A DNA stretch of 64,000 nt from Bacillota bacterium. Lineage in GTDB: Bacteria; Bacillota; UBA994. The number at the start of each line of letters is the position of its first letter. Position 1 is the first letter of the stretch. Below the pieces are notes generated by a model that was given only the letters and a program-made list of their open reading frames with translations, searched no databases and was not told where the DNA came from. The stretch spans positions 169,721 through 233,720 of the forward strand of contig JAGXTJ010000055.1 of the NCBI GenBank assembly GCA_018333655.1, written 5' to 3'. A program made the translations under genes and the position numbers. Positions 7,701 through 22,914 of the stretch are shown here, piece after piece.

Positions 7701-8027
7701 TTTTACATGGTCTATATGGGCACAGCAGGCGACGTCATCTGTGACCACCTTTCGCCTAAGAAATTGCTCGATAGATTCCGCGATCTGTGCAAAGACAAGT
7801 CGACGCCCGTGGTGGATGTTTGCCGCACCTTCAACGCCGAAACCAAGGACGGGCGCGACATGCGGCACATTTCTTCGCTACTGACGGCTGCGATTAAATC
7901 AATTATCGAAGTAAAAGACGAAAGCGACCTCGACAGCCTCTTTCGCCCCGGCGGCACGTCCGCCTTACATACCACCATCAGCGGACTAGACGACTTTGAG
8001 ATGATATGCTTCTTAGTGGTGAGGTGA
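4794..8027 (+). CDS. SNF2-family helicase with an uncharacterised N-terminal region of about 230 aa
   Basis: Motif I ADSVGLGKTFTA, motif II DLVVIDESHNFRN, motif III LMLSATPVNN, helicase-C ATDCISEGQNLQ, motif VI HWNPVRIIQRFGRIDRIGS. AAGGAG SD lies about 10 nt upstream of the ATG. Confidence 0.9.
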   Translation: MRMPEFFDNVSKTVRDDLLVTIKKGDKLSVAAACFSIYAYQTLKKQLDGIDELRFIFTSPTFLQEKTPREKREFYIPRRDRERSLYGTDFEVRLRNELTQRAIARECAAWIRKKVQFRSNQTSGYISGFMSVNGEITTTYTPLHGFTTADIGCERGNNIINPVSKFDSSHANGYLSLFNHIWNDTNLLRDVTEQVIDSITAAYKENAPELIYFVAIYHIFNEFLADVSEDTLPNEATGFKDSKIWHKLYAFQKDAALAIINKLESYSGCILADSVGLGKTFTALAVIKYYENRNRSVLVLCPKKLSDNWNTFKGNYVNNPVAPDRLRYDVLYHTDLSRERGKSNGLDLDRLNWGNYDLVVIDESHNFRNGGDFYGEDRRENRYLRLLNRVIRAGVKTKVLMLSATPVNNRFIDLRNQLELAYEGEASRIHEKLGTKQTLDEIFRNAQKAFNQWSKLDEGHRTTDALLRALDFDFFTLLDSVTIARSRKHIVDHYDMSEIGAFPERLKPLSLRPRLSDLPSAINYNEIYDQLMNLNLSVYIPTNFIFPSQLAKYVDTSLNINRAGREMGIRRLMSINLLKRLESSVESFRLTLGRVKKLIDDTLAEIDAFTRGGGSVVKCQELLGDEADFDEDDRNTEYFAAQHSLKINLADMDYKTWRDRLAADAETLELLKSMIDDITPRHDTKLQTLLGQIESKLTNPLNENNRKILIFSAFSDTAEYLYANVSAFVKSKFGLDTALITGNVDGKTTIKGQRAALNEVLTLFSPISKDKHLLMPHSRDDIAVLIATDCISEGQNLQDCDYCINYDIHWNPVRIIQRFGRIDRIGSRNAVIQLVNFWPDLDLDEYLALKGRVETRMRISVMTATGDDDLINTEEKGDLEYRKAQLQQLQEKVMDIEDIQSGISIMDLGLNEFRLDLLAYVKRVGNMDTLPLGLHAVVPASADCPPGVIFVLKNRNNSVNRDMQNRLHPFYMVYMGTAGDVICDHLSPKKLLDRFRDLCKDKSTPVVDVCRTFNAETKDGRDMRHISSLLTAAIKSIIEVKDESDLDSLFRPGGTSALHTTISGLDDFEMICFLVVR

Positions 8028-8031
8028 CGCT

Positions 8032-8643
8032 ATGTTAGAGCTACCCCGTTCAACTGAGGTGAACCGCCGTGTGCCGAAAGAAAAGCTCTACGCCCACACA
8101 ACCCTAACCACAGAGGTGCGCGACCTAGTGAAAGACCAGGTAGAATCTGTCGTCTGGCGCAACAAACTGGCGGAGAATACCGCTGGCATCGCCACCGGCG
8201 AAACAGTGAAAGAGCTCCAAGTTTTTGCGGTAACCCTGCGTCAGCGTGGGTTAGATAAACGCGTCCTGCAGGTCATCGCCAAGGCCATACCCTACAAGAT
8301 ACTGTTTGTGCTCATTTTTGGTGACGAAGCACAAGCGTGGATCGAAGTGGCCGGCACGTTTTACCACACCGCATGGCTCGCAGTCGACAGTCTGCCGCTG
8401 AAGTTCACGGGGCTTAATCTAGACGCCGTCTATGAGAACTTAGCCCGACAGGTAGCGGGCGGTAAGCTCGGCGAAGCCGGCAACATCGCCGCAGCCGTAG
8501 CCCGTGACAAACAAAGGCAAAAACTCGAACGCGCCATTGCCGCCTTACAGAAGAAATCGCTGCGCGAAAAGCAATTCAACAGACAAGTCGAACTAAACGA
8601 CGAGCTGAAACGACTGCGAAAAGAATTGGCGGGGCTAGGATGA
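8032..8643 (+). CDS. DUF4391-like protein
   Basis: 203 aa, 4 nt downstream of the SNF2 stop. The N-terminal pattern (VPKEKLY..., VESVVWRNKL, ELQVFAVTL..., IPYKILFVL) matches my memory of DUF4391, which is typically found next to SNF2 helicase and methyltransferase genes. Confidence 0.65.
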   Translation: MLELPRSTEVNRRVPKEKLYAHTTLTTEVRDLVKDQVESVVWRNKLAENTAGIATGETVKELQVFAVTLRQRGLDKRVLQVIAKAIPYKILFVLIFGDEAQAWIEVAGTFYHTAWLAVDSLPLKFTGLNLDAVYENLARQVAGGKLGEAGNIAAAVARDKQRQKLERAIAALQKKSLREKQFNRQVELNDELKRLRKELAGLG

Positions 8644-8761
8644 GTGCCTAACGAATACCAGCAGCACTCTCGCCCGTAAAGTCAGCTTCTAAGCCACGCA
8701 GGTATGGCAGTTAGCGCAGCCTATAGTTGCTAGACTGCCCTCATAAAGGAGGAGTAAACCC

Positions 8762-10726
8762 ATGTCTATTAAAATGAAATTCGAAACACCAGACCTTACC
8801 GCCGCGAACGTGGCGAAAATCGCCGCACTGTTTCCCGGGGTGGTTACCGAGGGCAAGGTTAATATTGATCTGCTACGCACCATGCTCGGCGATGACGTGC
8901 ACGGCGACGAAGCCTACGAGTTTACATGGGTGGGTAAGCGCGCCGCCATTGCCGAAGCAGGGCGGCCAGTTCGCAAAACCCTCCGCCCCTGCGTGGAGGA
9001 GAGTAAGGACTGGGACACGACCGAGAATCTTTACATAGAGGGGGACAACCTCGATGTATTGAAATTACTGCAAGAAAGCTACCTCGGCAAGATCAAAATG
9101 TGCTATATCGACCCTCCGTATAACACAGGGAAGGACAGCTTTTTATACCGTGATAAATTCACTATGGACGCGGATGAATACGATGAAGCTGTTGAAATGT
9201 ATGACGAAGAAGGCATGAAAAACTTTCGTGAAAATGTAAAGACAAACCCTCGTTATCATTCCGACTGGTGTACATCCATATATCCTGTATTGGTGTTGGC
9301 CCGAAACATCCTATCAGATGACGGGATAATCCTTATTAATATGGATGAAAATGAAATTATCAATCTCCAAAAACTCTGTGCGGAGGTTTTCGGAGAGTCT
9401 AACGATTTAGGGACAATTATTTGGGATAAGAGAAACCCCAAAGGCGACGCGAAGGGCATTTCATATCAACACGAATACATTGTTGCATACGCCAAGAATA
9501 AGCTGTCATTTGTGGAAAAATGCAAAATGCAACGCCCCAAAAAAAATGCCGCGGCAATTATTGCAAAGGCAAATCAAGTATTTAAGAAGGTAGGAGCTAA
9601 ATACACTCTTGAAGAAGCAAACCGCGAATTTGCATCGTGGGTTTCTGCACAAGATGATTTTAGTGGTGGCGAGAAAGCATATAACCGCATCGACCAAAAC
9701 GGAGATGTGTATAGGCCAGTTTCAATGGCATGGCCAAACAAGAAAAAGGCTCCCGACGATTACTTTATTCCCCTAATACACCCAATAACAAAAAAGCCGT
9801 GTCCTCTTCCAGAGCGTGGTTGGCGCAATCCCTCTGCTACAATGAATGAATTGTTGCGTGAAGGTTTAATTCTGTTTGGTAAAGACGAAACAACTCAACC
9901 TAACAGAAAATATTTATTAAAAGAGAATATGTATGAAAATATTCCATCGCTACTTTATTATGGAGGAAGCGATACAGACTTGCTTGCTGAACTGGAGATT
10001 CCTTTCGACACCCCAAAGGTTGTCAGCATAGTAAAGGAACATATACAGTCTTTTACTGCTGATAGTGATATTGTGTTAGATTTTTATTCCGGCTCCGCCA
10101 CCACTGCCCATGCGGTGATGCAACTGAACGCCGAGGACGGCGGCAAGCGCAAATTCATTATGGTGCAATTACCGGAGCTTTGCGCACCGGACAGCGAAGC
10201 GGCGAAAGCGGGCTACGCCAATATTTGCGAAATCGGCAAAGAGCGCATACGCCGGGCGGGTGACAAAATCAAAGCTGAAGTTGGCTTGACCGCCCAAAAC
10301 CTAGATATCGGCTTCCGCGTCCTAAAAGTCGACGATACTAACATGACCGATATCTACTATGCCGCCAGCGACTACACTCAAGAGTTATTGTTTCAAGTAG
10401 AAAACAACATTAAGCCCGACCGCACAGATATGGATTTGCTCTTTGCCTGCCTCTTAGACTGGGGGCTGCTACTTTCTCTGCCGCACACGCAGGAGCAAAT
10501 TGATGGCTTCACTGTTCATACCTACAAAGGCGGGGACCTAGTAGCCTGTTTTGAGGCGGGTATTAGTGAAAACGCCGTCCGTGAGATCGCCAGCCGTGAA
10601 ATAGCCGACCGCCAGCCGCGGCGCGTCGTTTTCCGAGACTCAGGCTTCGGCAGCTCGCCGGATAAAATAAACGTGTTTGAGATTTTTAAGCTGCTCGCGC
10701 CGAATACGACTGTCAGGGTGATCTAG
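8762..10726 (+). CDS. Site-specific DNA methyltransferase, beta-class N6-adenine/N4-cytosine (Type III Mod-like)
   Basis: Catalytic motif IV CYIDPPYNTG sits N-terminal to SAM motif I VLDFYSGSATTAHA (beta-class order). SD AAAGGAGGAG precedes the ATG. Confidence 0.9.
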   Translation: MSIKMKFETPDLTAANVAKIAALFPGVVTEGKVNIDLLRTMLGDDVHGDEAYEFTWVGKRAAIAEAGRPVRKTLRPCVEESKDWDTTENLYIEGDNLDVLKLLQESYLGKIKMCYIDPPYNTGKDSFLYRDKFTMDADEYDEAVEMYDEEGMKNFRENVKTNPRYHSDWCTSIYPVLVLARNILSDDGIILINMDENEIINLQKLCAEVFGESNDLGTIIWDKRNPKGDAKGISYQHEYIVAYAKNKLSFVEKCKMQRPKKNAAAIIAKANQVFKKVGAKYTLEEANREFASWVSAQDDFSGGEKAYNRIDQNGDVYRPVSMAWPNKKKAPDDYFIPLIHPITKKPCPLPERGWRNPSATMNELLREGLILFGKDETTQPNRKYLLKENMYENIPSLLYYGGSDTDLLAELEIPFDTPKVVSIVKEHIQSFTADSDIVLDFYSGSATTAHAVMQLNAEDGGKRKFIMVQLPELCAPDSEAAKAGYANICEIGKERIRRAGDKIKAEVGLTAQNLDIGFRVLKVDDTNMTDIYYAASDYTQELLFQVENNIKPDRTDMDLLFACLLDWGLLLSLPHTQEQIDGFTVHTYKGGDLVACFEAGISENAVREIASREIADRQPRRVVFRDSGFGSSPDKINVFEIFKLLAPNTTVRVI

Positions 10727-10739
10727 GAGGTGACGATGA

Positions 10740-13700
10740 ATGAAGCTGCAATTTAGGCATCAGGCTTTTCAGGCGGACGCGGCAAGGGCGGTCTGCGATG
10801 TGTTTGCGGGCCAGCCCTTTCACACGCCGACCTACCTCGTAGACCCCGGCCTAGGGCAAATCAAGATGGAAGCTGACCAGGCCTTCACGGGCTTTAACAA
10901 CGCGCCTATCGCCCTAGGCGACGCTCAGATTCTAGAGAATATACGCGCCATACAGCGCGCTGGCCAAATCAAGCCGTCCGAGGCACTTGAAGGTCGCTAC
11001 AACCTGACTATCGAGATGGAGACTGGCGTGGGCAAGACCTACACCTATATCAAGACCATGTATGAGCTCAACAAGCGGTACGGCTGGAGCAAATTCGTCA
11101 TTGTCGTGCCGAGCGTCGCTATCCGCGAGGGGGTATATAAGTCGTTCCAAATAACCGAGGATCATTTTGCCGCAGACTACGGCACTAAAATACGCTACTC
11201 CATCTATAATTCGGCGCGATTAACCGAGATTGACCGTTTTGCCTCCGACAGCGCGATTAATGTCATGATCATCAACAGCCAAGCGTTTAATGCCAGAGGC
11301 AAGGACGCGCGGCGTATTTATATGAAGTTAGATGAGTTTCGCTCTCGCCGCCCCATTGACATCTTAGCTAAGACGAACCCTATTCTCATCATCGACGAGC
11401 CGCAGTCGGTAGAGGGCGCGGCTACCAAGGAGCGACTTAAAGAGTTTACTCCGCTGATAACGCTGCGCTATTCGGCGACCCATCGGCCGGACAGCGTCTA
11501 TAATATGGTTTACCGCCTTGACGCGCTCGAAGCCTATAACAAGAGGCTAGTTAAGAAGATTGCCGTTAAGGGCATCTCTGTTTCTGGCAGCACGGCTACC
11601 GAGGGCTATGTCTACCTACAGAGCATCAATCTCTCTAAGGGTAACCCCAAGGCGACGATAGAGTTCGACGTAAAAGGCAAATCCGGCATCCGCAAGGCGG
11701 TAAAAAATGTAGACGAGGGCTACCGTCTGTATGACAACTCCGGCGAGATGGCTCAGTACCAGGACGGTTACACTGTTATGCGGATCGACGGCAGAGATTC
11801 GTCTGTAGAATTCACCAACGGCAAGAAGCTTTTTGTGGGCGACGTCATCGGCTCGGTCAACGAGGAGCAGCTGCGCCGCATTCAGATCAGAGAAACTATC
11901 CTCTCGCATATCGAGCGCGAGCGCGAGTTGTTTGCCAAGGGCATCAAGGTGCTGTCGTTGTTCTTCATTGACGAAGTGGCGAAGTACAAACAGTACGACG
12001 CCCAGGGCCATGCCACCGGCGGTACTTACGCCCAGGTCTTTGCGGAAGAATATAACGAGATTACTGGCTCTATGCAGCTTCGGCTGGAAGATTCCCCAGA
12101 TTATATAACATACCTGGCGGGCATCCCTGTGGAGCGAACACATGCCGGGTATTTCTCTATTGACAAACAGAGCGGTCGCATCATTGATAGCAAGCTCGGA
12201 GACAGAAGGGAACGCACCTCCGACGATGCCGATGCCTACGACCTTATTATGAAGGACAAGGAGCGCCTGCTTGACCGCAGCGAGCCTGTGCGGTTTATCT
12301 TTAGCCACTCTGCCCTGCGCGAGGGTTGGGATAACCCAAATGTGTTCCAAATTTGCACCCTGAAGCAAAGCGGTAGCGATGTACGCAAACGGCAGGAAGT
12401 CGGGCGCGGTTTGCGCTTAGCCGTCAATCAAAGCGGCGTGCGTATGGACGAGAATGTTCTCTCGCGCGATGAGATCCACAACGTCAATGTGCTGACCGTT
12501 ATCGCCAATGAAAGCTACGACAGCTTTGCCAAGGCCTTGCAAGCTGAGCTTGCGGAGGCGGTCTCTGACCGCCCGCGCAAAGTCGAGGCGCAGCTGTTTG
12601 CCGAGAAATTTGGCAAGGTTACCGCTTTGGTAATTTACGAAAGCATGATTAAAAATGGCTATGTCCAGCGCGGTGAATTGACCGAAGCATACTACGAAGC
12701 GCGTAAGAACGGTGCGTTTGAATTGCCAATAGAAGCTGCCGCCCGCGCCACCGAAGTTCGCGCCGTGCTTGATTCCGTCTATGACCCAAGCGCTAACAAA
12801 CCAGTTAATGCCCGCCATAACAATGTCGACATAACCCTAGACAAAAACAAAATGAACAGCCGCGCCTTCCAAGAACTCTGGTCGCGCATCAACAGCAAAA
12901 GCTACTACATCGTCAATTTTGACGAAGCCCAACTGATCGAGAAAGCTATCGCGGGGCTAGACGCTAGGTTGCAAGTGCCCAAGGTTTACGTCAATGTGGA
13001 GCGAGGCGAACAAGCCAGGACCATCGAGTCCAAAGAACAACTGCAGGCAGGCGCGGCATTTGTTCGCGCAGAAATAGTGCGCGAGGAAGCAGCGCCTAGC
13101 ACTACGCTAAAGGCGAATAGCACCGTTCGCTACGATCTTATTGGCAAAATCGTCAACGAAACAGGGCTGACACGAAAAGCGGTAGCCGCAATCTTGATCG
13201 GCCTAAAAAAGTACGTGTTTGACCAGTTCGCCGACAACCCCGAAGAGTTTATTCTGCGTGCCGCCAATATTATCAACGAGGAAAAGGCCACGGCAATTAT
13301 CCAGCATATCACCTACGATAAACTGACCGCCGCATTCGACACCACTATTTTCACCGAGTCCGGCCTAAAAAAAGGCGCCTTGGGCGTAAACGCCATGGCC
13401 GCCAAAAAACATTTATACGACTACGTCCTCTACGACTCCAATATCGAGCGCGACTTTGCCGCCAAACTAGAGGCCCATAGCCAAGAGGTCGAAGTCTATG
13501 TCAAGCTGCCGCGGGGCTTTTACATTAGCACTCCCCTCGGCAAGTACAACCCCGACTGGGCAATCGCCTTCTACAAAGGCACGGTGAAGCACATTTTCTT
13601 TGTCGCGGAAACAAAGGGCACTATGTCCCCCGTGGACATGCGTGAGATTGAACAAACGAAGGCCGACTGCGCCCGCGCGCATTTTCGCGCCATTAGCGGC

Positions 13701-13763
13701 GCCACAGTAATATACGATGTTGTGGATAGCTATGAGCAGTTATGGAATCTGGTGCAGAAATAG
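10740..13763 (+). CDS. Type III restriction enzyme Res subunit (SF2 helicase + C-terminal PD-(D/E)xK nuclease)
   Basis: Helicase motifs METGVGKTYTY, ILIIDEPQSVEG, LRYSATH, REGWDNPNVFQICTL, QEVGRGLRL. C-terminal YNPDWAIAF...FFVAETKG nuclease motif. Starts 13 nt after the MTase stop, with an AGGAGG SD. Confidence 0.9.
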   Translation: MKLQFRHQAFQADAARAVCDVFAGQPFHTPTYLVDPGLGQIKMEADQAFTGFNNAPIALGDAQILENIRAIQRAGQIKPSEALEGRYNLTIEMETGVGKTYTYIKTMYELNKRYGWSKFVIVVPSVAIREGVYKSFQITEDHFAADYGTKIRYSIYNSARLTEIDRFASDSAINVMIINSQAFNARGKDARRIYMKLDEFRSRRPIDILAKTNPILIIDEPQSVEGAATKERLKEFTPLITLRYSATHRPDSVYNMVYRLDALEAYNKRLVKKIAVKGISVSGSTATEGYVYLQSINLSKGNPKATIEFDVKGKSGIRKAVKNVDEGYRLYDNSGEMAQYQDGYTVMRIDGRDSSVEFTNGKKLFVGDVIGSVNEEQLRRIQIRETILSHIERERELFAKGIKVLSLFFIDEVAKYKQYDAQGHATGGTYAQVFAEEYNEITGSMQLRLEDSPDYITYLAGIPVERTHAGYFSIDKQSGRIIDSKLGDRRERTSDDADAYDLIMKDKERLLDRSEPVRFIFSHSALREGWDNPNVFQICTLKQSGSDVRKRQEVGRGLRLAVNQSGVRMDENVLSRDEIHNVNVLTVIANESYDSFAKALQAELAEAVSDRPRKVEAQLFAEKFGKVTALVIYESMIKNGYVQRGELTEAYYEARKNGAFELPIEAAARATEVRAVLDSVYDPSANKPVNARHNNVDITLDKNKMNSRAFQELWSRINSKSYYIVNFDEAQLIEKAIAGLDARLQVPKVYVNVERGEQARTIESKEQLQAGAAFVRAEIVREEAAPSTTLKANSTVRYDLIGKIVNETGLTRKAVAAILIGLKKYVFDQFADNPEEFILRAANIINEEKATAIIQHITYDKLTAAFDTTIFTESGLKKGALGVNAMAAKKHLYDYVLYDSNIERDFAAKLEAHSQEVEVYVKLPRGFYISTPLGKYNPDWAIAFYKGTVKHIFFVAETKGTMSPVDMREIEQTKADCARAHFRAISGATVIYDVVDSYEQLWNLVQK

Positions 13764-13829
13764 ACGCCAAGGCTACGCTAGCCCCGCACCCTGTGGCGCA
13801 GGGAAGAACGCTGCAAGAGAGGTGGCTTT

Positions 13830-16406
13830 ATGCCGCATAGTATTCGAGAGTTGTTAAATGAGTTGCCTGGAGAGGTAGTATACCAACACAGGCTAGCTGC
13901 TCGATCTGCCCTCCTTGATGAAATACCTAGAAATATCCACAGAAAGCTGTATCTCCCCCTACGTCATGAGTTCCCCCAAGGCCTTTATTCCCATCAGACT
14001 AAGGCCATTAGACAAAGCCTGTCAGGTCGACACGTAGCCCTTGCCACGTCAACTGCATCGGGAAAGTCACTTTGTTTCGTTTTGCCCACCCTCGACGCCC
14101 TGTTGAGGGATCCTCAGGCGTGTGCTCTGTTTGTGTACCCACTAAAAGCACTATCTGGCGACCAACTCGAATTGATTACACATTGGGCAGAACGAGTTGG
14201 GCTAACAAGCCAAGTCTTTCGGCTAGATGGCGATATTAAGGGTGAAGAGCGAAATCAGGCCCTAGCACGCGGAAGATTATTTATCTGCACTCCTGATATA
14301 CTTCACACCACCATCCTCAGACGCAACCTTGATGAGCATTACACGCGGATCTTTAAAAACCTTGCCTATGTAGTTCTGGATGAGTGCCATGTTTATGATG
14401 GGGTTTTTGGCAGTCATATGGCGCTCGTTGTTCGGCGTCTCAGGCAGGTGTGCAGGAACCATGGCAGCTCACCTCGATTTATCGTAGCAAGCGCTACCAT
14501 CGGACAACCGCATGAACACGTCAGCAACCTCATCGGGACAGATGCAGTCGACCTCATCACCGAGGACATGAACGGCAGTCCCACGGCAGAACGGGATTAC
14601 TTCATGGTGAACCCCGCCAACACTGAGAGTTCATACGGATACATCATGAAGCTCACCCGGGAGCTTGTTAAGCGAGTCACCCAATTTGTGGTATTCTGCA
14701 ACTCGCGCAAGGAAGTCGAACAATACGCTTTGAGTTTACGTCAGGATTCCCCGAAAATGCATGATAGCATCATGCCCTACCGGTCGGGATACGAGTCTTC
14801 GGATCGATCTGCGATAGAGCGGGCACTCCGGCAGAAAACCCTCCTCGGCGTTTTCTCCACCTCTGCCCTCGAAATGGGCATCGACCTACCTAATCTTGAT
14901 ATCTGCGTTATGGTCGGGTTACCCAACAGCCAAGTCAGCCTCATTCAGCGTGCTGGTCGCGTAGGCAGGCGGCGCCCCGGAGCTGTAATCATTTGTGGCA
15001 AGGAAACCCCGTTTGATGAGTATTACTTCAAAAGGCCCGCTGATCTTTTTAAGCGGGCCCTAGAACAAACCACCGTCAATCTGTCAAACCCGAATCTTCT
15101 CATTTCACACTATGCCTGTGCGAGGATTGAAGGGGGAGATTTTGAGAATCCTCGTCTGGACCCCGATATTTTTGGCCGAGAGTTTATAAATATAGCCAAA
15201 CAAGTGCATCAGTTTGATTACGCGCAGGACATTCTCTATGACCAGGAGCCGCACTTTAAGATTAGCATCAGATCGATTGATGACCCGGTCTATAAACTTG
15301 GCTACGGCCACAGCACCATAGAAATACCCTTAGGGCAAATAACCTACTCTAGATTGATGCGCGAGGCCTACCCTGGTGGAATATACCTGCACCTAGGAAC
15401 CCGCTATCGGGTAAAAAAGGTCATCTTCGGCAAACGCGAAGTGCTTGTCGACCGGCGTTGCCCCTTTGCTTCCACAAAACCTAGGCTTGAATCATGGGTT
15501 AAACCTAAAACAACACTTCGCAAAGGCGCGGTGCGATCATGGCCAAGCATTGACGTAACAGAATCCACCCTCAGCATAACGGAAAAGATCACGGGATACC
15601 TAGAGAAGTCAGCCTCAGAAGAGAGAGAGGTGGTGTATAAGCAGCCTCTGATGCGGTACTTCGTCACTTCTGGCATAGTCATAAAAATAAAAGGGCTCTC
15701 TAGACTGACGCATGGATCTATAGTGGGCTTCGCTAATGCTATCGAAAACTCATACCCCATTGTCTACCGCTGCGCTCGCGCCGACATTGGGAGCTATGCC
15801 TGGAGCAAGGAAGAGCACGAAGGACATATTTACCTGTATGATGCCACTCCTGGCGGACTGGGCATCACCTCATCTGCCCTCGCCCATTTTGAGAAGCTCG
15901 TCGAGACTGCACTTGATGGCGTGATCAGTTGCGAATGCAGCCTAGACGAAGCCGCCTCTATCCATGGCTGTATAAAATGCGTTAAGTCCAATATGTGGCT
16001 GCGCTACCCGAACAGCACCCGGGCAGATACTTTATTTCTTCTAGAAGAAATTCTCAGGGTAGTCACGCAATCGGCAGCGGAGATTACTTTGCCGCAAGAT
16101 CGTAGACCTCCGTCTCCATCGCAGCGGAACAAGTATGGCCGAACAGTGTTAGCTAACGGATCCGTAGTTTACACTGGTGCGGGCCACGAGGCAGTAGTGA
16201 TAAGCAGTACCCCCATGGAGTCTACTATAAGTCCTGGGGAGAGGTTGTATCTAGTTCAAGGCGCCATGGGGGAATCTAAATCATTTATAGGCAGCAAGCT
16301 AACGCTGATACAGGGAATGGTTGAACTCTGGTGCGTCAACTGCGGTGCCGATTCCATCTCCATGGAAGATGCAGTATGTCCGATTTGTGCAGAAAAGCTG
16401 ATTTAA
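13830..16406 (+). CDS. DEAD/DEAH-box helicase with DUF1998 (MrfA/YprA-like), paralog 1, with extra C-terminal beta-rich + zinc-ribbon module
   Basis: Helicase motifs LYSHQTKA, ATSTASGKSLCF, VVLDECHVYDG, ASATIG, QRAGRVGRR. DUF1998 signature YLYDATPGGLGITS and Cys cluster CECS...GCIKC. Terminal CVNC...CPIC. Confidence 0.85.
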   Translation: MPHSIRELLNELPGEVVYQHRLAARSALLDEIPRNIHRKLYLPLRHEFPQGLYSHQTKAIRQSLSGRHVALATSTASGKSLCFVLPTLDALLRDPQACALFVYPLKALSGDQLELITHWAERVGLTSQVFRLDGDIKGEERNQALARGRLFICTPDILHTTILRRNLDEHYTRIFKNLAYVVLDECHVYDGVFGSHMALVVRRLRQVCRNHGSSPRFIVASATIGQPHEHVSNLIGTDAVDLITEDMNGSPTAERDYFMVNPANTESSYGYIMKLTRELVKRVTQFVVFCNSRKEVEQYALSLRQDSPKMHDSIMPYRSGYESSDRSAIERALRQKTLLGVFSTSALEMGIDLPNLDICVMVGLPNSQVSLIQRAGRVGRRRPGAVIICGKETPFDEYYFKRPADLFKRALEQTTVNLSNPNLLISHYACARIEGGDFENPRLDPDIFGREFINIAKQVHQFDYAQDILYDQEPHFKISIRSIDDPVYKLGYGHSTIEIPLGQITYSRLMREAYPGGIYLHLGTRYRVKKVIFGKREVLVDRRCPFASTKPRLESWVKPKTTLRKGAVRSWPSIDVTESTLSITEKITGYLEKSASEEREVVYKQPLMRYFVTSGIVIKIKGLSRLTHGSIVGFANAIENSYPIVYRCARADIGSYAWSKEEHEGHIYLYDATPGGLGITSSALAHFEKLVETALDGVISCECSLDEAASIHGCIKCVKSNMWLRYPNSTRADTLFLLEEILRVVTQSAAEITLPQDRRPPSPSQRNKYGRTVLANGSVVYTGAGHEAVVISSTPMESTISPGERLYLVQGAMGESKSFIGSKLTLIQGMVELWCVNCGADSISMEDAVCPICAEKLI

Positions 16407-16415
16407 GGGAGGAAG

Positions 16416-19016
16416 ATGGCGATGGATGAAGTAATCCGAATCATCGGAGGGTCGGGCTTTACAGTAGCGCATGAACATCTGGCACACCCCCGGGCATCGC
16501 GCATGTTGCCTTGCCCTGAAGTGCATCATCTTATCGCCGAATATGTGGCGAAAACGTATTCGGGCCAGCTCTTCAGGCACCAGGCCCTAGCAGTACAAGC
16601 TGCCCTAAAGGGGCAGAATGTCGCCCTAGTTACAGGTACTGCCTCAGGTAAGACCCTGAGCTTTGCCATCCCAGTATTTGACGAGCTGCTTAGAAACAAG
16701 CAGTCAAGAGCCATGTTCTTTTATCCCACCAAAGCCCTAGCAGGCGATCAACTCAAGTCCCTGCAAGCGCTTGCGGCAGCTTTAGGAATGCCGGGAACTG
16801 TTTTTAGATTCGATGGAGACACCTCCACCGATGACCGCAAACGGGCGCTTACCAGTGGCCGGCTACTCCTGTGCACGCCAGATGTATTGCATACGACAAT
16901 GCTTAAACGCCATAAAGAAACTCTTTACCACGAGTTCTTCGCCAACCTGAGATCCATTGTGCTAGACGAATGCCACATTTACAGTGGCGCTTTCGGTAGC
17001 AACATGGCCTTTGTGCTCAGGCGTCTACGGCAGGTGTGTCAGTCCAAAAACTCACCCCTCCAGTGGTTCGCCGCCAGCGCCACCAGCTCAGACTCGGGCA
17101 ACCACCTCAAACTACTCACCTCGGAAACGTTCACTATCATCGACGAAGCGGAGAACGGCGCTCCCTCCGGAGGCAGAAGATACATCCTTGCTAATTGTGT
17201 GAATGAAGCTCAGGTTTCTTCCGTTAATCATCTCATTGCCACCTTGGCCACCGAAAAGAAGAAATTTATCGTCTTTTGTCAGTCGCGCCGACTTACTGAG
17301 CAGTTCTACCACGAACTGACCTCGGCTCACCCAGCAATTATGGGCACAGTGATGCCATATCGCTCGGGCTACGAACCAACAGATCGACAAGACATAGAAG
17401 ACTCCATACGAGACAACCGCCTGGTAGGCGTCATATCGACATCAGCACTTGAACTAGGCGTTGATCTGCCGGAGATGGAATATTGCATTCTCATTGGCCT
17501 GCCCACGACGGCAATTAGCCTTATGCAGCGCACTGGTCGCGTCGGTAGGAATCCGGGCCAGCAGGGCAAGGTTATCATTTTCCCCTCAGACAATGCTGTG
17601 GATGACTACTATCGTCGACACCCAGACAAGATCTACACACGCCCCTTGGAGAAACTAGTTCTACACATCGATAACCGTCAGTTGATCCTCTCGCATTTCG
17701 CTTGCGCCAGATATGAGAGTCAAAGTTTCGACAGCCCAGACCTCGACAGCAATATTTTTGGGCCAGATTTCGTAGAGTTGGCGTCTACTGTAAACAACCT
17801 CGATACCGTCGATGACATCCTAGTCAGCAGTGACCCACACTCAATGTTGGGGATTCGCGGAATCGGCGACCCCACGTATGAAATATACACTAGCGGTGGC
17901 GAAAAGCGCCTAGGCACTATAACTTGGTCACAAATACTTAGAGAGGCCTATCCTAAAGCTGTATACAGGCACATGGGCGAAGCCTACAGAGTAGAGCGCA
18001 TTCTATCCCGCGATTGCGTAGTCAAGGTCAAAAAAGAGAATCGCAACCATAGTACTTCCCCGGTAGGACACGTTTTTGTACGCGAACGCACTGGCGCGGG
18101 GGCAACGGTCTATAGGCGTGCAACATGGATAGACAAGGTTGAGCTCCTCCACACCAACATGGTTGCAACAACAGTAACAAGTGGCTTTAGAGAAAAGATT
18201 AACGGGCGATGGGTGCAAGAGAAGTATCAAGCACCTCTGCAACGTCGGGTTTTCTCTGAAGGTGTCTGGTTCAAACTGCTACCGGGCTTTGGCGAGGTCA
18301 CTCGGTCAGGTCTCAACACCTTTGTTCACGCGCTCTCCAGCGCATATGCCATATACATGCCGTGTGACACTGCTGAGTTAGCCACTCATTCTATGCGCAA
18401 ACCAGATGGCAGTTCTTGCATGTATGTATTTGATACCACTTCGGGGGGACTCGGTATCTCAGCAGGCCTCTTCGACTGCTTTCAACAGCTACTGCCTATG
18501 GTAGAGGAGAGGCTATCCACCTGTGGCCACTGCGATACCGACCGCTTCAATAGTGGTTGCCCTGCGTGCGTCCAAGGACCCCGTTGGTATGACGACAATG
18601 ACCACCTAAATAAGAGCGAGGCGCTTGCGATCCTGCGAAATCTCTGCAAAGTACTGTCCGCAGCAAATCCCGATATCATGGTCTCCTCTGCTTATCGTCA
18701 TCGTGAACAAGGTGGGCTAACCTCCATTTCTGACATGGGGAACGCCGAGATGCCCCAGAAATTCGGAGCCCCCGTTTATAATCGCGGCGCCGTCGTTCGC
18801 CTACCTTCTGGACTCGAAGGGACTGTATGTGAGGCATTCGACGAGGCCGGCCAAATGACCTATGTGCTTGAGCTGCCAAATGGGCGCCAAATCCGTATTC
18901 GCGACATGGGTCTCGTGCTCGTCTCTGGGGATCACCACCTGCGATGTGGTTGCTGCGGAAGTGAGTGTGCCCATGATACCCGCTACTGTCCAAACTGCAT
19001 GGCAGAAGTCGGATAG
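16416..19016 (+). CDS. DEAD/DEAH-box helicase with DUF1998 (MrfA/YprA-like), paralog 2, with extra C-terminal beta-rich + zinc-ribbon module
   Basis: Helicase motifs LFRHQALA, VTGTASGKTLSF, IVLDECHIYSG, ASATSS, QRTGRVGRN. DUF1998 signature YVFDTTSGGLGISAG and Cys cluster CGHC...GCPAC. Terminal CGCC...CPNC. Starts 9 nt after paralog 1, with a GGGAGG SD. Confidence 0.85.
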   Translation: MAMDEVIRIIGGSGFTVAHEHLAHPRASRMLPCPEVHHLIAEYVAKTYSGQLFRHQALAVQAALKGQNVALVTGTASGKTLSFAIPVFDELLRNKQSRAMFFYPTKALAGDQLKSLQALAAALGMPGTVFRFDGDTSTDDRKRALTSGRLLLCTPDVLHTTMLKRHKETLYHEFFANLRSIVLDECHIYSGAFGSNMAFVLRRLRQVCQSKNSPLQWFAASATSSDSGNHLKLLTSETFTIIDEAENGAPSGGRRYILANCVNEAQVSSVNHLIATLATEKKKFIVFCQSRRLTEQFYHELTSAHPAIMGTVMPYRSGYEPTDRQDIEDSIRDNRLVGVISTSALELGVDLPEMEYCILIGLPTTAISLMQRTGRVGRNPGQQGKVIIFPSDNAVDDYYRRHPDKIYTRPLEKLVLHIDNRQLILSHFACARYESQSFDSPDLDSNIFGPDFVELASTVNNLDTVDDILVSSDPHSMLGIRGIGDPTYEIYTSGGEKRLGTITWSQILREAYPKAVYRHMGEAYRVERILSRDCVVKVKKENRNHSTSPVGHVFVRERTGAGATVYRRATWIDKVELLHTNMVATTVTSGFREKINGRWVQEKYQAPLQRRVFSEGVWFKLLPGFGEVTRSGLNTFVHALSSAYAIYMPCDTAELATHSMRKPDGSSCMYVFDTTSGGLGISAGLFDCFQQLLPMVEERLSTCGHCDTDRFNSGCPACVQGPRWYDDNDHLNKSEALAILRNLCKVLSAANPDIMVSSAYRHREQGGLTSISDMGNAEMPQKFGAPVYNRGAVVRLPSGLEGTVCEAFDEAGQMTYVLELPNGRQIRIRDMGLVLVSGDHHLRCGCCGSECAHDTRYCPNCMAEVG

Positions 19017-19038: not shown

Positions 19039-21816
19039 CTACACCGATGGCGCATGGCACGCTGACGCCGTGATTATCTGCAGCAGTCGACTTTCCAAAC
19101 GCTCCTTTTCTCCGCTCGCATTAGTGGCAAATCGCAAAAGAGGTAAATCAATCTGCGCCAAAATCCTATCTTTGACTTGATCCCGCTCCAATTGCTTGGC
19201 AACTTGTTGGTGATATCTAAAGCCGTCCACTTCAATTGCCAAAACGGGCTCTTTATCCATTCTGTTATAAATGAGGAAATCCACATGAGAACAAGGGTGC
19301 GCAGCAAATCCTTGTTCTCGCTCATTTAGCCCCGCCATGTCCTTTACAATCATGGCCAACGGAACATGCAGCGCGACCTTAAACGAGGCAAATTCTTGCT
19401 TTGCCAGCACTTCCTCAACAAGCTCGTTAAATAAATTTTCTGACTGAAATTGCGATACCTTCTTTGTCTTGATAGCCCTCAGCTGCAGTAGCTCTGCATA
19501 CTCACTATATAGCATATCGAATACGGAGGCCTTCGTGCTTTCAACCGCTTGTCCACCCGCACTATTGTAAGTCATGTAGCGTATTAAATCTCCCAGATGT
19601 GTCCCGTGTTGCCGCGATATGTTGTCGGACGTGACGACTATAAACTTTTTCACCGCCCGCGAAACTGCAACATTTATCAAGTTGGGTTGATCAATAAAGT
19701 CGTTGACCTCATTAGACACCGTGGAAAAAACAATGATTTGTTTTTCTCGTCCTTGAAATTTATGGATTGTGTCTGCTTCTATCCCCTCAACAGCTACCAT
19801 TTTTCTTAACTCAGCAACATGGTCACGATAAGGCGCGATAAGGCCGACCTCGCTGCCGCCACATGACTCCACAGCGCTATCTCTTAACACTTCATCGCGT
19901 ACAACTTCGATCTGCCGAAGATTGTACCAACCAGTCCCTATCCTGCGTGCATGATTTCCTGGTGCTGTTCGATAGACCTGAAGCGCTTTCTCATCGCTAG
20001 CCGCATTAGTCATGACTATTAACTCATTATTGTAAAATTTCTCATTGCAATACCGGATTATCTGGGGTTGACAGCGGTAATGCTCTCGCAACAGCGTCCG
20101 GGCTACCCGTTGCTCGTACAGTGCCACCAAAGATGAAAGAATACTGTGCTTCGAAAAGTCATAAGCGCTACTTATCTGCAAAACTTGCCGCAGCTGATTG
20201 CTCTTGTGCTCCACATCCTGCGATACGATTTGCGGCAATTGTTTTAAATCCCCGACAATAACGGCCTTCTTGCAACAGGACATGGCTAAGGCGGCAGTGG
20301 CTAAATCGACCTGCGAAGCTTCATCTATTATAAGATAGTCGAAGATGAAGTTCTCTGCCATGCTGTTCCGAATGGAATGCGTTGTGCTTAAAATTACAGG
20401 ATAATGCTCCACGAAGGCGTGAAATTGAGCCTTGTACTCCTTAAGAAAAAACTCCCGCCTGCCGCGCTCCCTGTATCGCGTAGACAGGGCGGCACGAAAG
20501 ACGTCTACAGAAAGATTGATCGATTGCTGCATCAGGCTATCAAAATCCGTTGCGCGTAAACGTCCTTCTAATGCAGCGATCTTTTGCTTATGCTCCTGTA
20601 TGGTCCGTTCATAATACAAATGATTTAAGGAATACGTTATGGCGGGCTGCGCCTTCGTCAGTATTGCGAAGTTGTGTATTCCATAATAAAAGAATAGCCT
20701 AGCTCTATTTGGCCAACTCATTAAGCTTCCCTGCTCAATTAATTGGCGATATTCGACTAAAAACTCCAATATATTTCTCCCTAGCCAATGTCTCCGTAGC
20801 GAGAACATTTTAAGGGGAATTAGCTCACCGCCTTGCTCACTCAAAAAATGGCTCTGTTCCGTTTCTAACCTCGCAAGATGCTCTCGCACACTCGCCGATT
20901 CATTGCGTATTTTTAGAAGAGCGGCCACCTCTGGGACAGTTTTGCGAAGTCGATCTGCGCTTGTAGTTAAGTCCTTCTTCGTGCGATCCCAGGCAGACAA
21001 ATCTAGCGCACATCCCGTACTGCCCTCAAAAAAGCGTTTCTGATTTTCTTGATGGCCCAAAGATGCCGCAATGAAGTCATACCCATCTTTTTTTAGTTTC
21101 TCCATCACATTATCTATGGCCGCGTTATTGCTAGAGACCACTGCGACAGTTTGTCCGCGGCACACTGCATTGGCAATTATATTGAGTATGGTCTGTGTTT
21201 TGCCAGTTCCAGGTGGCCCCTCAATGATACTGATGGAATTGTTTAGGGCCTGCTCAACCGCCTTCTTTTGACTCAAGTTAAATCCAAATGGGAAAATGAC
21301 CTCTGAGACGTCTGCCGCTTTTTTTATTTTGGCAGCACTAAGATACGTAGCAAGCACGCTTTTAGGATTTATTCGCCCCATTTTCTGATATTGTTCCCCC
21401 AACAGCGATTGTCCTTGCTCTGTAACATTTAATTGCTGGGCGACTCCTGCAAGATATGTGAAAACTGTGCCCTCTTTTGACGCCGCCACACATATCTCAT
21501 GGTAGCTTACCCGATGGCGCGGTAGACAAGTGGTGGTCCCTTTTGAATTAATGACTCGAACGTATTCGCCAAAGTCGTCGACTCTGACAAGTTGTTCAGC
21601 CGGCACGTCGTCGATGCATACAATTGTGTCTGCTAGGTTGATTGGCTTAGGATTGCTCAGCACACGCACGCGATCCTGTGCATACTCGTATGGCTTGCTG
21701 CTGCCATAAAAAACTACGCGGACCCGCGCGCCAACAAATGTTATCTTTTGCACCTGGGCGCTTTTGTCCTCATATATATCTGTTGTGCTCGACTTTATAA
21801 GAATAAGACGATTCAC
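19039..21816 (-). CDS. SF1 (AAA_11/AAA_12-type) helicase with C-terminal DUF2726-like endonuclease domain
   Basis: Helicase motifs IIEGPPGTGKTQTI, YLIIDEASQV, VGDLKQLPQ, FQGREKQIIVFS, INVAVSRAVKKFIVV. C-terminal signature HVDFLIYNRMDKEPVLAIEVDGFRYH...RDQVKDRIL. Confidence 0.85.
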   Translation of the reverse strand: MNRLILIKSSTTDIYEDKSAQVQKITFVGARVRVVFYGSSKPYEYAQDRVRVLSNPKPINLADTIVCIDDVPAEQLVRVDDFGEYVRVINSKGTTTCLPRHRVSYHEICVAASKEGTVFTYLAGVAQQLNVTEQGQSLLGEQYQKMGRINPKSVLATYLSAAKIKKAADVSEVIFPFGFNLSQKKAVEQALNNSISIIEGPPGTGKTQTILNIIANAVCRGQTVAVVSSNNAAIDNVMEKLKKDGYDFIAASLGHQENQKRFFEGSTGCALDLSAWDRTKKDLTTSADRLRKTVPEVAALLKIRNESASVREHLARLETEQSHFLSEQGGELIPLKMFSLRRHWLGRNILEFLVEYRQLIEQGSLMSWPNRARLFFYYGIHNFAILTKAQPAITYSLNHLYYERTIQEHKQKIAALEGRLRATDFDSLMQQSINLSVDVFRAALSTRYRERGRREFFLKEYKAQFHAFVEHYPVILSTTHSIRNSMAENFIFDYLIIDEASQVDLATAALAMSCCKKAVIVGDLKQLPQIVSQDVEHKSNQLRQVLQISSAYDFSKHSILSSLVALYEQRVARTLLREHYRCQPQIIRYCNEKFYNNELIVMTNAASDEKALQVYRTAPGNHARRIGTGWYNLRQIEVVRDEVLRDSAVESCGGSEVGLIAPYRDHVAELRKMVAVEGIEADTIHKFQGREKQIIVFSTVSNEVNDFIDQPNLINVAVSRAVKKFIVVTSDNISRQHGTHLGDLIRYMTYNSAGGQAVESTKASVFDMLYSEYAELLQLRAIKTKKVSQFQSENLFNELVEEVLAKQEFASFKVALHVPLAMIVKDMAGLNEREQGFAAHPCSHVDFLIYNRMDKEPVLAIEVDGFRYHQQVAKQLERDQVKDRILAQIDLPLLRFATNASGEKERLESRLLQIITASACHAPSV

Positions 21817-21856: not shown

Positions 21857-22552
21857 CTACTTTGACCACAGCGCGGTAAGCTCTCCATACTTCGCGAGGG
21901 CGGCCTGGCCTAACTCAGTCAGCGAATATACCCCTCGCCCCATGCGCTGAAACCACCCGTAGACATTGCGATAGAGAGTGGCCCAAGTATTGGGATTCGT
22001 GGTGAATTTGCGTAGCTGCGCTGCTGTCAGTGGCCCATGAATGGATAAGAGGTAGGCCATGCGCAAGGCGTGCTCACGGTAGGCCGTCATAAGCTCTTGC
22101 CCAGTCGTGCCTGCCGTGTTTAGATCGAGACTACGCTCGGACGCTTCTGTGCCCATCGCCTTGCGGGCCTTGGCATTGCGCCGCCCCGTGAACGGCTGTG
22201 GAGACAGTGCCAGCTCTACATGCGGCGGACTGCACAAGGGATCAACTAACAATAACCCTAGCTCCAGTCTGCGCAAGAGCTGCAGCACTCCCCGCCAGCG
22301 ACCAGACCTCAGGCCGCGTTGCGGCCTAAACACGGCAACATAGACCGCGTCCGCTACTTGTTGACGCCTTGTGGCTTGAACTAAGGCATGGAGCCCTAAG
22401 GTCAGCTTAAGCTCTACGGCTACTAGTTCTTCTCCGCGCATGCACACAAGGTCGCAGTGCTTTACCTCTGTACGCACCACATAGCCCTGCCTCTGCCAGT
22501 ATTCCACTATCGGTGCGGAGAGGTCGCTTTCCTTCAGTTTGCTACGCATCAA
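21857..22552 (-). CDS. PD-(D/E)xK nuclease-fold + wHTH protein (DUF2161-like), copy 1
   Basis: N-terminal GYVVRTEVKHCDLVCMRGEELVAVELKL fits a D...E.K restriction-endonuclease-like core. About 87% aa identity (hand alignment) to the paralog at 37172-37903. Lies 40 nt upstream of the 19039-21816 helicase. Confidence 0.6.
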   Translation of the reverse strand: MMRSKLKESDLSAPIVEYWQRQGYVVRTEVKHCDLVCMRGEELVAVELKLTLGLHALVQATRRQQVADAVYVAVFRPQRGLRSGRWRGVLQLLRRLELGLLLVDPLCSPPHVELALSPQPFTGRRNAKARKAMGTEASERSLDLNTAGTTGQELMTAYREHALRMAYLLSIHGPLTAAQLRKFTTNPNTWATLYRNVYGWFQRMGRGVYSLTELGQAALAKYGELTALWSK

Positions 22553-22615
22553 ATCTCCCTTTCAGTCTAAGTTGTAAAAGAACAGGCAGACTCACACCTC
22601 ACATACTGAATGTGT

Positions 22616-22650
22616 CTCTCGTCAAGCAGCAGGCTCCGTCCCTAGCGCAA
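22616..22650 (+). repeat. Junction motif copy 1 (CTCTCGTCAAGCAGCAGGCTCCGTCCCTAGCGCAA)
   Basis: Read directly. The core CAAGCARCAGGCTCCGTCCCTAG recurs six times in the window. Its CTA supplies the stop codon of the amidase fragment. Confidence 0.8.
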
Positions 22651-22914
22651 GAGACTGGGGGGCTTGCGTAGCTCTGTCCCCTGTTCAAAACTATAGGCCA
22701 AGCGTATAAGTGTTGTTTCTTCGTATGCGCGGGCGGTAAAGGTAAGCCCTAAGGGCTTGCCCTCGGTAGTGTAACCTGCCGGCACAGTGATAGATGGATA
22801 GCCCGCCTTGGCGGCGATGGCCGCGGTAAAGATCGCATCGGGGTCTAGTTCAGCTATGCTGTTCAAACGTGGCCCGCTCTTGTCTAGCGCCGCAAAGATG
22901 CTAATTTCATGCAT
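22642..22914 (-). pseudogene. C-terminal fragment of an amidase-signature-family enzyme
   Basis: Only about 90 aa remain (AGYPSITVPAGYTTEGKPLGLTFTARAYEETTLIRLAYSFEQ), which is typical of amidase C-termini. The roughly 400 N-terminal residues are absent. Confidence 0.6.

Follow-up and report, generated by a model that had tools for sequence, protein, structure and literature searches.

A rare, co-inherited tandem of two MrfA-type helicases in anaerobic Bacillota and its possible role in defence

Introduction

Why would a bacterium encode two complete helicases of a repair type side by side within a defence island, and does the pair defend the cell or repair its DNA? The question is raised by a 64,000-nucleotide (nt) stretch of a Bacillota bacterium of the UBA994 lineage (GenBank assembly GCA_018333655.1, contig JAGXTJ010000055.1, positions 169,721 to 233,720), referred to here as the window, in which two neighbouring genes, A and B, encode proteins of the YprA/MrfA (DUF1998) helicase family. 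A reading made from the letters of the window, the sequence-only reading, had proposed that the pair is an old duplication acting in defence rather than in repair. Helicases of this family form the core of major anti-phage systems (DISARM, Dpd, Druantia, ARMADA, BRIGADE and TALON), and a recent study concluded that the family has been recruited to immunity repeatedly, while describing its repair side as ‘YprA only ... no conserved genomic context’ (Bell et al. 2025, doi 10.1101/2025.09.15.676423). MrfA is a 3'-5' DNA helicase and SftH a monomeric 3'-5' helicase (PMC7797055). Here we report that A and B constitute a real and undescribed co-inherited two-helicase cassette among the YprA-family systems, and we weigh what it may do; full-text searches on DUF1998, YprA, MrfA and MZB brought up no description of tandem MrfA-type paralogues.

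Genes A and B encode two complete MrfA-type helicases

The sequence-only reading had placed two adjacent open reading frames (ORFs) of 858 and 866 amino acids (aa) 9 nt apart, and their exact coordinates are borne out (Table 1). The two genes share a reading frame, and their junction reads TAA-GGGAGGAAG-ATG, with the ribosome-binding site GGGAGG inside the spacer. Because this Shine-Dalgarno sequence for B lies directly behind the stop codon of A, the arrangement suggests that the two genes are translationally coupled. Consensus scans for promoters and terminators around the pair gave counts no higher than those in shuffled sequence, so operon boundaries are not callable from them, and an Rfam scan of the whole window returned zero matches.

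BLASTP joins the two proteins in a single collinear alignment over residues 16-853, with 293 identities in 858 positions (34%), 54% positives and E = 1e-172. Similarity so far above chance clearly points, at the level of sequence, to an ancient tandem duplication. The motifs that had been listed for the pair by eye (HQ..A, TASGK[ST], LDECH, SAT, QRxGRVGR and D(A/T)T.GGLGI) are all seen in this alignment, as are the four-cysteine clusters SC-ECS...GCIKC in A and TCGHC...GCPAC in B, and the claim of an old duplication with fewer than half of the positions identical and the catalytic motifs kept holds across ~24 A-type and ~23 B-type orthologues. An assembly artefact or a recent duplicate is ruled out by the 34% identity and by a duplication that predates the spread of the family.

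A and B both pass the Pfam gathering thresholds of three domains, DEAD, Helicase_C and MZB (PF09369, earlier named DUF1998), with E-values of 5.9e-27, 1.1e-17 and 1.9e-13 for A and 5.8e-28, 3e-18 and 3.5e-12 for B. Within the helicase core of A, the Q motif (H55-Q56), Walker A (T73-K79), DECH (184-187), SAT (221-223) and motif VI (Q373-R380) are invariant among 24 A-clade sequences; the corresponding residues of B, comprising Walker A (T73-T80), DE(C)H (184-187), SAT (221-223) and motif VI (Q371-R378), are invariant among 23 B-clade sequences. The MZB cysteines of A (C701, C703, C714 and C717) do not vary across an alignment of 100 sequences from the family and its outgroups, and those of B (C703, C706, C715 and C718) are invariant in the B clade. 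A degenerate, regulatory paralogue is ruled out, all motifs being invariant in the A and B clades.

The architecture is that of MrfA/YprA, as had been proposed. The closest solved structure, and the sole strong match in the PDB, is Bacillus subtilis MrfA/YprA (6ZNP; 309 bits, E 4e-91), to which residues 4-704 of A align over chain residues 7-723; the second-best match, a 2108-aa DEAD/DEAH helicase (9tu7, chain entry 9tu7_Y), scores 63 bits in the RecA1 region. The top NCBIfam model for both proteins is TIGR03817 (DECH helicase), which matches A and B nearly over their full length at 388 and 373 bits (residues 20-745 in B), scores that fall under its equivalog cut-off of 874. An AlphaFold2 model of A, computed from a 100-sequence alignment, has a mean predicted local distance difference test score (pLDDT) of 92 and a predicted TM-score (pTM) of 0.91, and Foldseek again places MrfA 6ZNP first (E 3.9e-58, target-normalised TM-score (TMt) 0.76-0.78), with the runners-up Lhr, Hel308 and RecQ ~40 orders of magnitude weaker. 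In the model RecA1 passes directly into RecA2 (~residues 245-255) without an inserted domain, and the hallmark insertions of ARMADA and Druantia helicases are thus absent. Judged by their motifs, A and B are complete, catalytically competent MrfA-type superfamily 2 (SF2) helicases, each with RecA1-RecA2, OB-CON and a four-cysteine MZB domain. By analogy with the fold and motifs of MrfA, both are expected to have 3'-5' helicase activity that depends on single-stranded DNA (ssDNA).

A family-specific C-terminal domain

Alignments of generic MrfA proteins end at ~residue 720, whereas A and B extend ~110-130 residues further. The additional sequence contains a domain of ~95-110 aa that is kept in the A and B clades and in their relatives A' and B', with an invariant tyrosine, an invariant glycine and four cysteines. 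Its terminal CxxC...CxxC zinc ribbon behind a small beta-barrel, present in both proteins, had been only partly noted before; the ribbon cysteines are C835, C838, C850 and C853 in A, and those of B show a conservation of at least 90% across the B clade. Modelled alone, the domain reaches a pLDDT of 88 and forms a seven-stranded SH3/Tudor/KOW-like barrel followed by the zinc ribbon. Foldseek found nothing in the PDB at E < 0.001 for this domain, only a generic SH3/KOW/Tudor-like likeness, the weak matches including the KOW region of eS4 (E 0.018) and the Tudor domain of ERCC6L2 (TMt 0.72). Pfam searches with the C-terminal and middle regions alone gave a single marginal match (Zn_ribbon_3, E 0.001), and PF22982, which is present in generic MrfA matches, gives no match in A or B.

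The pair forms a rare family inherited as a unit

A and B were each searched against 5.8 billion proteins. Orthologues of A are 41-69% identical to it and those of B 48-78%, and the opposite paralogue set appears at 33-40%; below the family, scores fall to ordinary MrfA proteins and MrfA-MrfB fusions at ~350 bits, and many of these outgroup MrfA proteins carry a fused PF13482 domain. The family is rare: phmmer over 1.84 billion representatives clustered at 50% identity returned ~13 clusters above 400 bits, and at 90% identity its members fall into ~60 clusters. A megablast search of Escherichia coli genomes with the pair found no match. When 185,579 species genomes were scanned with the A-clade alignment, the 80 loci returned (L013-L092) included no family members, the scan having matched generic motifs (TSALE[ML]G[IV]D and [VI][LI]DECHxYxG) in ordinary MrfA proteins of 28-34% identity. 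A metagenome scan with family motifs (H[FY]ACAR and SQ[ILV][LM]REA) retrieved 7 loci, mainly on short contigs. The known spread covers Thermincola, Desulfitobacterium, Desulfotomaculaceae, Pelotomaculum and Sporomusaceae, a patchy distribution that, on present sampling, does not extend beyond anaerobic Bacillota.

The sequence-only reading had asked whether tandem pairs form a clade distinct from MrfA, DrmA/B and DruE. In a neighbour-joining tree with 100 bootstraps, which included no ARMADA, DruE or DrmA sequences, the family separates from MrfA, with support of 99 for the whole family and 100 for the family together with a single-gene sister clade; towards DrmA/B and DruE, the likeness consists of partial matches to the helicase core, and the placement of A and B relative to the ARMADA/Druantia branch rests on scores and architecture. 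Within the family, the A clade has a bootstrap of 81, the B clade 84 (rising to 100 without the basal member P0034), and B with its sister B' 100. The basal A' clade pairs with a basal B member, a congruent pattern, and a mirror-tree comparison of A and B pairwise identities over nine pairs gave r = 0.976 (Mantel p ~2e-4). Identity between A and B within a pair is 34-42% throughout. A is the faster-evolving paralogue, with a mean identity of 47% as against 56% for B over nine pairs. Little or no variation is seen in either clade at Walker A, DExH, SAT, motif VI, the four MZB cysteines or the terminal zinc ribbon. The pair is the product of one ancient tandem duplication in which both motors were kept active and which has been inherited, and has moved, as a unit.

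Genomic neighbourhoods of the pair

The tandem is not peculiar to this genome; uniqueness to it was an outcome that the sequence-only reading had named as speaking against its proposal. A directly precedes B on the same strand in 11/11 distinct loci retrieved (the window, L001, L003, L004, L006, L007/8, L009, L010/11, L100, L101-103 and L105-108), and the spacing elsewhere is mostly -22 to +29 nt. Hosts include Thermincola potens (L001, CP002028), Desulfitobacterium hafniense (L100), a Sporomusaceae metagenome-assembled genome (MAG; L009), a Desulfitobacterium MAG, a Desulfotomaculaceae MAG and five metagenomic lineages, one of them carrying the basal A' pair (L101-103). The neighbours of the pair differ between loci, and defence genes adjoin it in 7/11.

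In the window, the gene pair lies between a Type III restriction-modification (R-M) module and a helicase-nuclease gene, as the sequence-only reading had described, and it sits in a defence island. Upstream, a module of four genes (SNF2 helicase, DUF4391, Type III Mod and Type III Res) ends 66 nt before A on the same strand; a consensus scan found no plus-strand terminator between Res and A, its counts being no higher than in shuffled sequence. The SNF2 protein matches the PADLOC candidate C3a139 ‘HKD+Snf2’ (E 4e-120) and is DrmD-like at 153 bits, as compared with a cut-off of 610, and the module looks like an elaborated variant of Type III R-M. Downstream and convergent with B lies a superfamily 1 (SF1) helicase fused to DUF2726, with PADLOC MkoA/MkoC-like matches; it has a full-length orthologue (46% identical) directly downstream of the pair in L009 and is absent from the other 9 loci. 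It is a possible facultative partner.

Elsewhere, the T. potens pair has a WYL regulator upstream and, 2.4 kb downstream beyond four unrelated small genes, a 56%-identical SNF2 helicase, a DUF4391 gene and a methyltransferase. In the two Desulfitobacterium loci (L006 and L100) the pair stands immediately upstream of BREX, and in D. hafniense it is sandwiched by a Shango-like TerB/ATPase/helicase trio and BREX; WYL/PafC-type regulators are found upstream in L001 and L006. PDC-S68 lies directly upstream of the pair in L004 and L009 (1207 and 1635 bits). L004 also holds GmrSD_C, together with ImmA/IrrE-HTH, ParB and TfoX_C genes beside the pair, and L009 an AAA_21 and DUF4276 gene pair. The pair nearest to that of the window is found in L007 (A, present at full length, 69%; B 76%), and its neighbours there are a NERD-helicase, HEPN-DUF499 and DUF1156. 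Overall, an SF1 helicase gene is directly beside the pair in 4/11 loci and a methyltransferase-based system is near it in 5/11. The cassette is rare, horizontally scattered and usually lodged among defence systems.

That no MrfB partner is present had been claimed for the window and extends to the other loci: no DnaQ/RNase H-like, MrfB-type exonuclease was found among ORFs of at least 100 aa in the first 41 kb of the window, and all 11 loci lack one beside the pair.

Relationship to known YprA-family systems

Both proteins have the features that define the YprA/MrfA family, a DExH core and an OB-CON-MZB canopy. They share the family, fold and helicase motifs of MrfA (6ZNP, 6ZNQ and 6ZNS) and SftH, the common fold consisting of an N-terminal strand, RecA1, RecA2, a helical domain, OB-CON and a four-cysteine MZB domain. 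Unlike MrfA, which is encoded by one gene, A and B are two diverged paralogues in obligate tandem; they have neither an adjoining nor a fused MrfB, carry the additional C-terminal barrel and zinc ribbon, and are rare and patchy in distribution, with a context consisting mainly of defence islands. MrfAB is a repair system whose loss leads to sensitivity to mitomycin C, and the DnaQ-type 3'-5' exonuclease MrfB that defines it is lacking both in the window and at the 10 other loci, within the scope given above.

Likeness to DISARM lies in a YprA-family unit of two polypeptides with a DUF1998 zinc domain, neighbouring methyltransferase and SNF2 genes, and a defence-island setting. However, DrmA and DrmB are two halves of one helicase (the core, and OB-CON-DUF1998, respectively), whereas A and B are each complete; there is no DrmC PLD nuclease gene, and the SNF2 protein scores below the DrmD cut-off. 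The DrmA models of PADLOC and NCBIfam match ~50-240 residues of A and B, in the RecA2 part, at 41-75 bits. ARMADA Type I/II and DruE are YprA-family helicases that act in direct, non-abortive anti-phage defence and engage ssDNA-containing intermediates. They are much larger than A and B and carry insertions, the synapomorphies of that branch being a BrxA-like domain after RecA1 and beta-barrel zinc and MarR-like insertions in RecA2 (doi 10.1101/2025.09.15.676423); A and B lack these and match the corresponding models over the core only. The fixed partners of ARMADA, TALON and Druantia (BrxHII-like with PglX-like proteins, DruH and others) are absent beside the pair. BRIGADE is the only described YprA-family system that usually has two YprA-like helicases per locus; these are ARMADA-like or Dpd-like, with insertions, form a near-identical pair in Type II, and occur only in haloarchaea together with a 7-deazaguanine cluster and a PLD or PD-(D/E)xK nuclease (doi 10.1101/2025.09.15.676423). 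The two-helicase feature alone is held in common with A and B, whose hosts are Bacillota and which have no deazaguanine cluster beside them.

Model searches agree with these comparisons. No full-length defence model in PADLOC-DB v2.0.0 fits either protein: BrxHI and SngC match best, at 133-141 bits over the helicase core, and the DruE, DrmA, DpdF/J and Cas3 models cover the generic core only, at 141 bits or less. No ‘antiphage’ model of NCBIfam release 20 matches A or B.

A possible two-helicase defence cassette and its alternatives

The pair is probably defence-related and probably heteromeric. More specifically, we tentatively favour, at somewhat below an even chance, a self-contained cassette in which A and B act jointly, likely as an A-B heteromer, to interfere with invading DNA. 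A heteromer would account for the tight translational coupling, the strict co-inheritance, the retention of both active sites and a shared additional domain that monomeric relatives lack, and it is from these features that we infer it; invading DNA is suggested as the target by the island context at 7/11 loci, by the accessory nature of its distribution and by the earlier cases of DrmAB, DruE and ARMADA. In such a mechanism, A and B would be co-transcribed, translationally coupled and produced from one two-gene cassette, and the heteromer would be held together or targeted through the additional C-terminal domains. Each subunit would be an ATP-driven 3'-to-5' ssDNA translocase, as are MrfA and SftH, and the two-motor complex might engage both strands of a single structure, for instance a fork, a D-loop, a gap or a DNA end. 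By analogy with DrmAB, DruE and ARMADA, the structures attacked may be replication or recombination intermediates of phages or plasmids. With no nuclease of its own, the cassette would leave any destruction of DNA to host nucleases or neighbouring systems, candidates being the Type III R-M system of the window and the SF1 DUF2726 or NERD helicase-nucleases found in the window and at two other loci.

In RecBCD and AddAB, two homologous subunits of helicase fold form a complex that engages both strands of a single DNA. These are SF1 enzymes with nucleases of their own, and AddAB has one inactive motor; the comparison with A and B is one of functional analogy only, and homology is not claimed. 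In its fullest form, the proposal is that the pair is an anti-phage system free of nuclease and methylase, made up of two co-evolving MrfA-type helicases that form a heteromeric dual 3'-5' motor with C-terminal domains for assembly or target recognition, and recruited from the repair-like (‘YprA-only’) side independently of DISARM/Dpd and of ARMADA/Druantia. This longer chain of steps is possible, and we hold it more loosely than the general statement above.

Several observations weigh against a defence cassette. The defence role is argued by guilt by association, in only 11 loci, and 4/11 have little or no defence context: the pair lies between a nitrate reductase and a molybdoenzyme in L003, beside a beta-CASP hydrolase and metabolic genes in L101, near just a ParE-like toxin and a weak HNH match in L010, and beside three unannotated genes in L105. 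By sequence and fold, A and B are nearest to the repair or ‘YprA-only’ branch and not to the defence branch, and they lack the BrxA-like, beta-barrel and MarR-like insertions of ARMADA and Druantia helicases. The cassette contains no nuclease, methylase or obvious self/non-self discriminator. SftH is active as a monomer, so complex formation between two helicases is not a necessity, and the mirror-tree correlation shows co-inheritance, not physical contact. A search of 2.9 million viral contigs with the family motifs found no relative, leaving carriage by mobile genetic elements unsupported. The earlier preference for defence over repair thus stands as regards the neighbours, which are defence genes at 7/11 loci, and not as regards the nearest kin, which are repair-type MrfA and SftH.

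The strongest alternative, which we consider unlikely though deserving of serious attention, takes up that kinship: A and B would be accessory DNA-repair or recombination helicases, a lineage-specific elaboration of MrfA/SftH in anaerobic Bacillota that acts on damaged or stalled DNA (crosslinks, gaps or forks), and their placement in variable regions would be incidental. The closest relatives are indeed of the repair branch, from the sole strong PDB match to the scores against TIGR03817 and the MrfA and MrfA-MrfB fusions that come next in the databases; the defence-branch insertions are missing; the WYL/PafC-like regulators upstream in two loci are compatible with a DNA-damage response; and two to four loci are without defence context. 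Against repair stand the lack of a conserved MrfB or other exonuclease beside the pair at the 11 loci, an extreme rarity and patchiness that are atypical of a repair function, the position of 7/11 loci within defence clusters (e.g. between Shango and BREX or beside PDC-S68), and the occurrence of loss or decay, the second helicase being broken in L103.

The neighbouring helicase-nucleases raise the question of whether A and B instead serve as motor or sensor in a larger modular system, in which a variable adjoining SF1 helicase-nuclease supplies the cutting activity (SF1-DUF2726 in the window and L009, the NERD-helicase in L007, and PDC-S68 in L004 and L009). We regard this as improbable. An SF1 helicase gene does adjoin the pair in 4/11 loci, the SF1-DUF2726 orthologue follows it directly in L009, L007, whose pair is nearest to that of the window, has its NERD-SF1 helicase at the same position, and TALON is known to couple an ARMADA-like YprA helicase to a NERD nuclease (doi 10.1101/2025.09.15.676423). 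However, the would-be partners come from different families and are missing from 7/11 loci; SF1-DUF2726 in the window is convergent and hence outside the A/B operon; PADLOC lists PDC-S68 as a single-gene candidate; and helicase-nuclease genes are common in defence islands anyway.

A composite with the upstream module, in which A and B would be accessory subunits of SNF2-DUF4391-Type III Mod-Res in the manner of DISARM or ARMADA, has still less to recommend it. The common strand, the 66-nt gap and the lack of a terminator-like site between Res and A are consistent with it, as are the similar SNF2, DUF4391 and methyltransferase genes of T. potens, a parts list that resembles DISARM class 1 and ARMADA, and the methyltransferase-based systems near 5/11 loci. 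Yet 9/11 pairs have no SNF2, DUF4391 or Type III genes within 10 kb, four unrelated small genes intervene in T. potens, the SNF2 score lies far from the DrmD cut-off, the methylase is an ordinary Type III Mod, and chance proximity is expected since R-M and BREX are the commonest residents of islands. Mod and Res suffice for Type III R-M, and accessory genes would be expected to co-occur with them; an obligate link between the pair and Type III R-M is ruled out by the absence of the module at 9/11 loci. Finally, we give very little credence to the pair serving a mobile element, in its replication, conjugative processing or anti-defence, instead of defending the host, for although L004 has ImmA/IrrE-HTH, ParB and TfoX_C beside the pair and the patchy distribution implies horizontal transfer, the viral contigs hold no relative, no integrase, relaxase or replication gene consistently adjoins the pair, and several loci are plain chromosomal contexts.

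Other features of the window and of related loci

Features of the window are collected in Table 1. The window is chromosomal DNA and includes a citrate lyase operon, whose CitF has its best named relatives, at 74% identity, in ‘Bacillota bacterium’ MAGs. The SF1 helicase at 226-4647 has partial matches to PDC-S37, ProA and Hhe and is probably another defence protein of the single-gene kind; it stands at the left edge of the island, whose left boundary falls outside the window. DUF4391 is hardly mentioned in the literature searched. To the right of the island is a segmental duplication with two DUF2161 genes. The flanking DNA contains repeats that are 74-89% identical (23902-24201, 29138-29437 and 38060-38359; 24439-24756 and 38695-38934). 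A motif of ~25-40 nt with the core CAAGCAGCAGGCTCCGTCCCTAGCGCAA occurs in at least 6 intergenic copies on both strands (22607-22667, 24885-24958, 26925-26976 and 37960-38020; inverted at 23872-23899 and 38035-38066); it reaches no Rfam family at the gathering threshold and could be a regulatory or a repetitive extragenic palindromic (REP)-like element. The QueD/PTPS-like and CobW-family genes were noted since BRIGADE and Dpd use 7-deazaguanine genes, and they are probably paralogues with a part in metal homeostasis and no relation to the helicases.

Table 1. Coordinates of the helicase pair, its domains and the surrounding features in the window
Feature	Position	Strand	Description and basis
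Gene A	13830..16406	+	858-aa MrfA/YprA-type SF2 DExH helicase; ATG start; ORF, Pfam, PDB, AlphaFold2/Foldseek
A RecA1-RecA2 core (~residues 52-390)	13983..14999	+	Pfam domains at 54-226 and 275-381
A MZB (DUF1998), residues 634-718	15729..15983	+	PF09369, 51.3 bits (cut-off 24.2)
A C-terminal domain (~residues 765-858)	16122..16403	+	SH3/Tudor/KOW-like beta-barrel, then four-Cys zinc ribbon
A-B spacer	16407..16415	+	GGGAGGAAG; Shine-Dalgarno for B right behind A stop
Gene B	16416..19016	+	866-aa MrfA/YprA-type SF2 DExH helicase; ATG start; ORF, Pfam, NCBIfam, orthologues
B RecA1-RecA2 core (~residues 52-389)	16569..17582	+	Motif residues
B MZB (DUF1998), residues 637-719	18324..18572	+	PF09369, 47.3 bits (cut-off 24.2)
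B C-terminal beta-barrel and zinc ribbon	18723..19013	+	Aligns with A C-terminal domain; C844, C847, C858, C861
SF1 helicase fused to restriction-endonuclease-like domain, 1473 aa	226-4647	+	AAA_11/AAA_12, MTES_1575/DUF559
SNF2 helicase	4794-8027	+	Four-gene module (4794..13763)
DUF4391	8032-8643	+	Four-gene module
Type III Mod	8762-10726	+	Four-gene module; PADLOC E 1e-218
Type III Res	10740-13763	+	Four-gene module; PADLOC E 8e-286
SF1 helicase (AAA_11/AAA_12) fused to DUF2726	19039..21816	-	PD-(D/E)XK-like; convergent with B, 22 nt off
DUF2161 gene	21857-22552	-	Putative PD-(D/E)XK; 88% protein identity to the other copy
QueD/PTPS-like gene	23089-23601	-	Near island
CobW-family GTPase	34028-34702	-	Near island
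DUF2161 gene	37172-38032	-	Putative PD-(D/E)XK; 88% protein identity to the other copy

Related loci show some further arrangements, and defence-type neighbours recur in the sister lineages. In L105, a block of three genes (475, 1481 and 428 aa; 7499-14679) lies directly downstream of the pair, has no Pfam or PADLOC match beyond a faint AAA_22 and is conserved in several contigs; it could be an uncharacterised system. In L101 and L102 (347-7307), the basal A' pair (869 and 872 aa) is followed by a beta-CASP protein of the metallo-beta-lactamase fold with a signal-peptide-like N-terminus. The second helicase of L103 is interrupted, with just a 543-aa ORF called, and its sequence suggests decay. 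L012 (1071-9742) shows a different arrangement of two DUF1998 helicases, in which a helicase of the B' sister clade (897 aa, P0036) has no A-type partner and is followed by a 108-aa ORF and a 1810-aa DruE-like helicase (YjiV_N and MZB; PADLOC DruE 358 bits). Members of the single-gene sister clade adjoin an AAA_15/23 ATPase and a BrxL-like ATPase.

Implications

The ‘YprA-only’ side of the family has been regarded as housekeeping repair without conserved context, and the A/B pair is a counter-example: it forms a distinct clade, has its own paralogue as a strict context, keeps both motors active, has a new domain at the C terminus of both proteins and is mostly located in defence islands. Its distribution is narrow, and A and B make a simple two-gene construct that is open to testing whichever role it has. 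As a repair system, the pair would be the first MrfA system in which two helicases are obligate. As a defence system, it would represent a further independent recruitment of a YprA/MrfA helicase to immunity, and a minimal system for learning how a helicase without a nuclease or methylase stops a phage.

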